DNA from: Candidatus Micrarchaeota archaeon
Lineage (GTDB): Archaea > Micrarchaeota > Micrarchaeia > Anstonellales > Anstonellaceae
Assembly: GCA_013331805.1 (NCBI GenBank)
Contig: DUFS01000040.1
Location: 1,592 to 15,336, forward strand
DNA: 13,745 nucleotides
Reading direction: 5' to 3'
Of the stretch, positions 5,444-5,762 are shown one piece after another. The position numbers and the translations under genes were made by a program. Position 1 is the stretch's first letter; each line of letters begins with the position of its first letter. The notes under the pieces were generated by a model. That model did not search any database. It was not told the origin of the DNA and worked only from the letters and a program-made list of their open reading frames with translations.

Positions 5444-5454
5444 GTGATATTGAT

Positions 5455-5757
5455 ATGGATCCGGCAATAAAATTCGCAAAATTTCTCAACGGGGTTAAGG
5501 CGCAGCCTTCCAAAATTGGCAGCTTTGGGAAATTCGTTATCGGGGCTGCCGGATTGACGGCAACGGCGTTAGTGGTGAAGAATTTCGCAATCAACGCAAT
5601 AAAGAAAGAACCCCCTCAGAATATCCAGCAAGGGACGAAGAAGCAGATCGACGTTGCAAGGAGGCAGGGCGAATTCCCTCCGAATATTTTAAAGGAAAAA
5701 ATTATGAATAACAGCTCGATAGAGCCCATGACGCTAAAGGTAATCGAAAAATCGTGA
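5455..5757 (+). CDS. Orphan 100-aa basic hypothetical protein with one hydrophobic segment, between rpoA' and rpoA''
   Basis: Fills the whole intergenic gap; GGTGA Shine-Dalgarno-like motif 5443-5447 overlapping the rpoA' stop; its stop lies 5 nt before the rpoA'' ATG; hydrophobic stretch [15 protein letters not shown]; no family recognised. Confidence 0.65.
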
Positions 5758-5762
5758 TATTC

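Follow-up and report, generated by a model that had tools for sequence, protein, structure and literature searches.

The window analyzed here, a stretch of 13,745 nucleotides from a Candidatus Micrarchaeota archaeon, is a classic archaeal RNA polymerase (RNAP) and ribosomal-protein operon. It starts on the + strand with rpoB'' (to 975) and continues with rpoB' (873-2852), rpoA' (2894-5443; stop codon 5441-5443), which encodes the 849 aa Rpo1N, and rpoA'' (5763-6764), which encodes the 333 aa Rpo1C counted from its conserved ATG. Genes for L30e, a NusA-like KH protein, S12 and S7 follow downstream of rpoA'' on the same strand, and an intein-bearing EF-2 of 1264 aa (9348-13142, +) is separated from S7 by a 193-aa gene on the - strand (8742-9323). 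Between the two halves of the largest polymerase subunit lies a small ORF (5455-5757, +), running from ATG to TGA and encoding a basic product of 100 aa without known family. The source genome, referred to as G000, is metagenome-assembled and comprises 1.19 Mb in 83 contigs.

The Pfam model for Rpb1 domain 5 is cut exactly at the ORF: positions 1-66 of this domain fall in A', together with RNA_pol_Rpb1 domains 1-4, and positions 67-265 in A''. The C-terminus of rpoA' is the acidic tail typical of the genus (...KTEAPEEIKREEHDA), the longer C-terminal tail of other archaea being absent, and rpoA'' begins about 10 residues ahead of the VGEAVG motif, without the N-terminal segment of 42-58 residues that other archaeal A'' have there. 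A sequence-only reading of positions 5444-5762 had described a 100-aa ORF filling the gap between rpoA' and rpoA'', and the frame indeed sits exactly at the A'/A'' split; the interval that was read consists of the ORF, its ribosome-binding region and the 5 nt ahead of the rpoA'' ATG. The GGTGA ribosome-binding motif pointed out in that reading is present at 5443-5447, 7 nt upstream of the ATG and overlapping the last base of the A' stop, and every other ORF found in the same slot in related species is likewise preceded by a GGTG/GGAGG-type motif. In a crude test of such Shine-Dalgarno (SD) signals, core motifs were located upstream of 138/518 long ORFs versus 58/518 in a control interval.

The spacing on either side, which the same reading had called near-zero, amounts to 11 nt between the A' stop and the ORF's ATG and to 5 nt between the ORF stop and the conserved A'' ATG. 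At the stop/start junction (5754-5765), a GTG at 5754 is overlapped by the ORF stop (TGA 5755-5757) in a GTGA overlap; the ATG at 5763 is the start kept in relatives, and rpoA'' has a GTGAT motif of its own upstream of it. The co-expression with RNAP that had been proposed fits these signals, as the ORF lies on the same strand, has its own SD motif and has a stop that abuts the A'' start. Ribosomes ending rpoA' would meet the GGTGA motif and the ORF ATG within 11 nt, and rpoA', the ORF and rpoA'' are probably read one after the other from a single mRNA.

That the ORF is no gene at all, whether because the assembly is chimeric or because a spacer without coding function happens to contain an open frame, is scarcely credible. 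It comes from a metagenome-assembled genome in 83 contigs, its GC content is below that of its flanks, and none of the 18 runs listed for the stretch is RNA; against this, the chimera raised in the sequence-only reading was looked for in Logan contigs and none was found. Identical contigs in three runs of three other studies (5292-6400, 4900-5974 and 5275-6400) bridge both junctions with 0 differences and no gap, and a fourth run covers each junction separately. A + strand ORF covering 94% of the gap was reached in 7/20000 shuffles, and the open-frame lengths of the slot ORFs in the five carriers were reached in 7, 9, 13, 111 and 239 of 20000 shuffles, for a combined probability of all five frames being open, taken as the product of p-values, of 9e-15. 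The ORF is judged to be coding because an orthologue in the sister species and the ORFs in the same slot elsewhere stay open at saturated synonymous sites.

As the sequence-only reading had noticed, the ORF is AT-richer than its neighbours, with 45.5% GC compared to 58-62% in the flanks, yet the difference is modest and inside the genome's range. Third-position GC (GC3) of the ORF is 56%, in comparison to 62% GC and 86% GC3 for the last 600 nt of A' and 58% GC and 78% GC3 for A''; the genome as a whole has 52.9% GC, and 6.7% of its 303-nt windows are as low as the ORF. The GC3 of 56% between flanks of 78-86% in G000 would fit poor codon adaptation and perhaps low translation; in the other four carrier species, the GC3 of the ORF tracks the flanks.

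The distribution of the ORF was followed by a protein search of 61 related genomes and by a survey of junctions, in which 26/30 loci fetched with A'' showed both gene ends and two more were read from longer stretches. The one clear homologue in that search, of 110 aa (E 1.8e-15, 48% identity), belongs to the sister species (G018), where it occupies the A'/A'' gap and shows the GTGA overlap as well. Among the 23 genomes of the genus, four had no A'' match and two ended before the junction, leaving 17 junctions to be seen. ORFs of like build, 62-110 aa in length, occupy the slot in five of the 17 (G000, G018, G012, G010 and G002), a truncated copy is found in one (G007) and a different ORF in another (G014), and at the remaining 10/17 the distance from A' to A'' is 2-74 nt. 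In other genera and families of the order, A' and A'' are adjacent in 11/11 loci, without room for such an ORF.

The two irregular junctions deserve separate comment. In G007, a 75%-complete MAG, the slot copy runs out of frame into an A'' whose first ~20-45 residues are absent, the GEPGTQ motif among them (similarity sets in at A'' residue 19-33, and the largest open frame begins from about residue 45); the contig (L041/L143) is probably corrupted or chimeric, and G007 was excluded from the slot-ORF profile. G014 carries a basic ORF of 88 aa (L136:2472-2735, -; 20 K+R and 8 D+E, GC 42%) without detectable similarity to the other slot ORFs (hhalign E 0.47), followed by a 70-nt spacer with a perfect hairpin, CATGGAAT-TGCG-ATTCCATG, and then GGAGG ahead of A''. 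This ORF may be a replaced copy or one that has diverged past recognition.

Certain junctions without the ORF retain a spacer of 59-74 nt, namely L019 (G006), L022 (G021) and the metagenome locus L046; in G006 and G021 it starts with ATGCGAAGCATTTGCGCAGA, and in G006 it contains short inverted repeats. The spacers of G006, G021 and L046 may be the remnant of a lost ORF or an RNA element, and those of 44-74 nt in G008, G021 and G006 may likewise be ORF remnants. A 518-nt contig of another organism was also matched on the conserved A'/A'' flanks, with 325 versus 521 letters between them (window 5298-5820), and would be a relative with a shorter insert in the same slot.

Beyond the order, the statement that rpoA' and rpoA'' are normally adjacent holds up well. 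A set of 80 metagenome loci comprises 5 incomplete ones, 7 with fused and 68 with separate A' and A''; in 66/68 of the latter, the longest A'' start lies -59 to +14 nt from the A' stop, and L046 (59 nt) and L111 (460 nt) depart from this range. The A'' frame of L111 is probably interrupted within its N-terminal extension, as judged from its match to the long A'' N-terminal extension of L102. Among 80 named genome loci (8 incomplete), none outside the genus has more than 118 nt at the junction, and none of those labelled Micrarchaeota has room for such an ORF. The suggestion of a lineage-specific gene is thereby borne out, the ORF being confined to one genus in both the synteny survey and the profile searches. 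The rpoA'-rpoA'' junction is among the most fixed of archaeal gene boundaries, abutting or fused in every lineage surveyed outside the genus, which is why an ORF lodged in it is of interest.

The profile searches that had been proposed leave the ORF an orphan. No Pfam or NCBIfam family reached its cut-off for the six slot ORFs at E<=1 (best 16 bits, compared to cut-offs of 22-550), a PDB profile search returned 7 unrelated chains (E 0.2-7.4) and no RNAP chain at E<=10, and a profile run against 1.84e9 representative proteins found only the 5 input members, as did a run over 42 family genomes. Feature scores in the ESM Atlas peaked at 0.78, short of the lead level of 0.9, and the structure rows name no family. 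Rfam over 5200-6000 gave one match, below the gathering score and inside A''. A full-text literature search found no description of a gene between rpoA' and rpoA'', and the available passages of PMC13257274 and PMC2675907 make no mention of one.

How far the slot ORFs are related to one another was assessed by pairwise Smith-Waterman scores, each compared to 1000 shuffles. The G000-G018 score was reached by 0/1000 shuffles, and those of G012-G010, G012-G002 and G010-G002 by 1, 9 and 7 of 1000, respectively; scores between G000/G018 and G012/G010/G002 are at shuffle level, the best being G018-G010 (44/1000), whose local match falls on the motif P-[FMY]-[STN]-L-[KG]. A leave-out HMM built from G012, G010 and G002 did not retrieve the window's ORF among 16974 genome ORFs at E<=10, and matches of a profile to its own members carry no weight for the unity of the five. 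The five slot ORFs thus form two supported sequence groups, and homology across the groups is not shown by sequence. Their unity rests on the identical slot, bracketing in the species tree, two short motifs and a common build, in which lysines are followed by a hydrophobic Ala/Gly helix and the helix by a basic tail.

Saturation of synonymous sites in every species pair (pS 0.55-0.87) makes dN/dS proper unusable, and pN was compared with pS instead. The dN/dS comparison proposed in the sequence-only reading could therefore be made in part: a homologue exists and pN (0.40) is below pS (0.77) for the G000-G018 ORF pair, but a true ratio is precluded by saturation, flanking dS being saturated as well. 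The dN of the ORF in this pair is 0.58 compared to 0.095 for A'', or ~6 times higher. With pN below pS and dN ~6 times that of A'', the protein is constrained, though loosely, under moderate purifying selection.

A tree of B'+A'+A'' (1798 columns, 12/15 inner branches starred) places the carriers G000+G018 and G002+G010 in a clade with 100/100 support, with G012 outside that clade and G007 and G014 as further carriers; the non-carriers form two starred clades, (G019, G004, G009) and (G008, G021, G003, G022). In the simplest history, the gene would have arisen once in the A'/A'' spacer, at the root of this Micrarchaeota genus, and have been lost in two lineages. The idea of an acquired passenger fares poorly here, as the gene is old within the genus, being shared at saturated synonymous sites and mapping to the genus base, and recent acquisition is further disfavoured by GC3 tracking the flanks in the other four species. 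Having been lost twice, the ORF appears to be dispensable.

These data also bear on whether the peptide matters at all. Ongoing translation across a widened spacer could be what counts, for coupling or for mRNA protection, with the peptide having little or no function; the length of 62-110 aa, fast divergence and lack of relatives are in keeping with such a relay, as are a frame relation to A'' that varies among species, poor codon adaptation in G000 and the dissimilar 88-aa ORF in the slot of G014. However, a pN of 0.40 against a pS of 0.77 amounts to constraint on amino acids, and motifs and architecture are retained over deep splits. A'' has its own SD-like motif and conserved ATG and need not depend on the ORF, and the ten congeners with 2-74 nt spacers indicate that deletion is easy. 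Such a relay is considered very unlikely.

As for the origin of the insert, 11-nt direct repeats, GTGATATTGAT at 5444-5454 and GTGATATTCAT at 5754-5764, bracket 310 nt and are 10/11 identical as found by repeat search; dropping one copy together with the intervening DNA would restore the layout without the ORF. Possibly, the translation-initiation region of A'' was duplicated as the seed of the ORF, though the repeats equally fit two initiation regions under the same selection, and GGTGATATTCATG is also seen ahead of A'' in another genus (L034). Derivation of the ORF or its helix from a duplicated 5' coding end of A'' was rejected, as Smith-Waterman scores against the species' own A'' N-termini were reached by 180-1882 of 2000 shuffles. 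A 17-nt direct repeat (5638-5654 and 5778-5794, 14/17 identical) encodes KKQIDV in the ORF and KKQIEV at the A'' N-terminus and is not significant alone.

In other archaea, the DNA directly 3' of the A' stop encodes the N-terminal part of A'' that precedes VGEAVG. Its length across loci falls at about 20-25, 42-67 or 73-148 residues; some metagenome lineages have ~20-25 aa, Thermococcus, Hadarchaeota, Sulfolobales and Methanocaldococcus have 42-54 aa, Thermoplasmata have 135-143 aa, and Micrarchaeota-labelled loci and other families of the order have ~0-7 aa. A fusion signature, in which the A'' match begins upstream of the stop of the A' frame, is seen in loci labelled Norongarragalinales, Altiarchaeota and some Micrarchaeota. 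The A'' chains in the PDB align to the window's A'' only from their residue 54-61 on, and in the sampled Micrarchaeota both the A'' N-terminal part and the matching longer A' tail are absent. We take the missing A'' N-terminal region to be the 'foot' of Rpb1.

The slot ORF shares with this segment its position after the A' stop and before VGEAVG, and in both an acidic-hydrophobic-Pro motif is followed by helices. The ORF could then be a detached remnant of the canonical segment, a reduced 'foot', and the largest subunit would come in three pieces. Its best local match aligns the EFPPNIL region with KDRLPESILKE, where canonical A'' has its conserved LP motif; the distance from motif to VGEAVG is ~40 codons across the stop in G000/G018 compared to the canonical 41, and in G012/G010 the ORF is in the A'' frame behind one stop. 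The match itself is not significant, whether for the slot-ORF alignment against 25 canonical A'' N-termini (hhalign E 0.28, probability 0.2%, 11 columns) or for the single sequence (E 0.047, probability 1.1%), and the motif distance differs in G002, G010 and G012.

Further differences weigh against such a remnant. The slot ORF forms a cistron apart from A'', bounded by a start and a stop of its own and preceded by an SD motif, it has an extra hydrophobic helix without counterpart in canonical A'', and the partner helix at the A' C-terminus is missing too. As the surrounding phylum, including the order's other families and the sampled Micrarchaeota, lacks the segment, either retention only here or re-acquisition would be required. 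This origin is regarded as highly improbable; sequence, profile and structure data show no link of the ORF to any part of RNAP, and its being a piece of the polymerase by descent is not supported by the sequence comparisons. A programmed frameshift or read-through fusion to A'' was likewise ruled out, given that the frame relation varies among species: relative to A'', the ORF is in frame -1 in G000/G018, in frame behind one stop in G012/G010 and in another relation in G002.

The ORF product has 16 K+R and 7 D+E in its 100 residues, and all six slot ORFs (including G007) are net basic. The Gly/Ala-rich hydrophobic segment noticed in the sequence-only reading is present at residues 27-41 (codons at 5533-5577) and would make only a marginal membrane helix. 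Averaged over 19 residues, Kyte-Doolittle values peak at 1.65 in the window's ORF, at 1.65-2.07 in 5/6 slot ORFs and at 1.05 in G010, which falls below the threshold. Summed Hessa-type insertion energies run from +0.8 to +9.4 and are positive for every 19-residue window, and the hydrophobic cores of the slot ORFs are 14-20 residues long. Two short motifs follow in the tail: EFPPNIL at codons 73-79 (5671-5691), an instance of E-[FLM]-P-[PA]-x-[IVF] in the alignment of five, in which P75 is the sole invariant column besides M1, and PMTLK at codons 91-95 (5725-5739), an instance of P-[FMY]-[STN]-L-[KG], which occurs in 4/5 slot ORFs.

AlphaFold2, run on the 5-row alignment, predicts helices only (3-15, 23-49, 62-71 and 76-85) with a mean pLDDT of 58 and pTM of 0.19, a quality too poor for a fold search with the model. 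The position of the hydrophobic helix differs between species: in G012, G010, G002 and G007 it comes after 3-10 N-terminal residues that include lysines or arginines, a placement that resembles a signal anchor, and in G000 and G018 it comes after 26-38 charged residues. The product is best described as a predicted helical protein with one hydrophobic helix that is a borderline membrane span. Signal-anchor single-pass membrane proteins of prokaryotes are similar in having basic residues, a helix of 14-20 residues rich in Ala/Gly/Val/Ile and a hydrophilic basic tail within 62-110 aa; the slot ORFs differ in their borderline hydrophobicity and, in G000/G018, in the charged stretch before the helix.

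Taken together, the reading we favour, tentatively and at somewhat less than an even chance, is that of a genus-specific orphan encoding a small, probably membrane-anchored protein that rides the RNAP operon as an independent cistron. The product would be a small basic protein made of an Ala/Gly-rich hydrophobic helix, its putative membrane anchor, and a hydrophilic tail in which both short motifs are conserved; G000 and its sister G018 would have gained a further, charged helix at the N-terminus, ahead of the hydrophobic one. The location nevertheless argues for some tie to RNAP, being an odd site for an unrelated membrane protein, as the gene would be made in step with A' and A'' and has been kept so for long.

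This tie would be direct if the product were a lineage-specific accessory subunit of RNAP, present at ~1:1 with A'/A'' and docking through its tail motifs or its helix, perhaps as a membrane tether or as a filler of the site vacated by the A' tail and A'' N-terminus. The gene lies right where A' and A'' part and is flanked at either end by signals for coupling, it has been retained over saturated synonymous divergence with pN below pS, its basic tail and short conserved motifs are of the kind that dock to partners, and the A' and A'' of Micrarchaeota lack the segments that flank the split elsewhere. Precedent is offered by Rpo13, described in the passages available as a protein of 104 residues with a strongly positive C-terminus in some Crenarchaeota only, whose family was unknown until it was found on RNAP (PMC2675907).

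Several findings speak against such a subunit. No similarity to any RNAP chain in the PDB is seen, the gene was lost in two clades without visible compensation in the A' tail or A'' N-terminus, and its dN is ~6 times that of its supposed partners. Codon usage in G000 is unlike that of RNAP genes, and the N-terminal helix behind lysines in G012, G010, G002 and G007 is more like a signal anchor than an interface. A complex prediction of the A' C-terminal 250 aa, A'' and the ORF, made with alignments, scored 0.00 in two runs without controls and speaks neither for nor against binding. An accessory subunit is considered rather unlikely.

Rpo13 is nevertheless the nearest known thing in kind. Passages on this protein of the Sulfolobales/Desulfurococcales show a likeness in size (104 vs 100 aa), helical character, a basic C-terminus and restriction to a narrow archaeal lineage. 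The two differ in that Rpo13 has been shown on RNAP, the slot ORF being at most a candidate partner, and in that Rpo13 has a helix-turn-helix and no hydrophobic helix, while the slot ORF has a hydrophobic helix. To our knowledge, the Rpo13 gene is not lodged between rpoA' and rpoA'', and none of the defining features of Rpo13 is found in the slot ORF. We regard the locus as a variation on the layout of the archaeal RNAP operon, marked by an orphan gene.

The locus neatly illustrates in nature how a young gene arises and persists within an essential and tightly coupled operon, and it supplies a candidate partner of the polymerase, specific to one lineage, in DPANN archaea, for whose transcription apparatus we know of no biochemical study. 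A bolder proposal is that the product is a new polypeptide in the transcription machinery of some Micrarchaeota, with a helix that would fasten RNAP to the membrane or fill the groove vacated by the lost 'foot'; this is thought quite unlikely, but if true, these tiny, host-dependent cells would have a membrane-tethered polymerase. Only a demonstrated contact between product and polymerase would make the interest high. If the product is only a small membrane protein that rides the operon, the locus is a curiosity, yet one that bears on annotation, in which such ORFs are readily dismissed or merged into A''.

Other features of the window and its relatives were recorded along the way. The intein of EF-2 matches the Intein_splicing model at residues 68-568 and LAGLIDADG_3, a homing endonuclease domain, at 381-448. 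A large insertion is seen in rpoA'' right after the GEPGTQM motif in G003 (L135), G014 (L136), G054, G057 and G044, giving frames of 810-842 aa, and is presumably an intein at the base of the trigger loop. The 193-aa gene (8742-9323, -) has no Pfam match, and its N-terminus (MNLRAQATTEMLILFAIVLLVL...) resembles the type IV pilin-type signal peptides of archaea; the gene is a member of a multi-copy family with 8 matches in G000 and 36 in G021, and its best matches lie 2-6 kb from A'' in G010, G002, G012, G018, G019, G009 and G004. Lastly, GC falls to 43% in the part of the window 3' of EF-2 (13200-13745).
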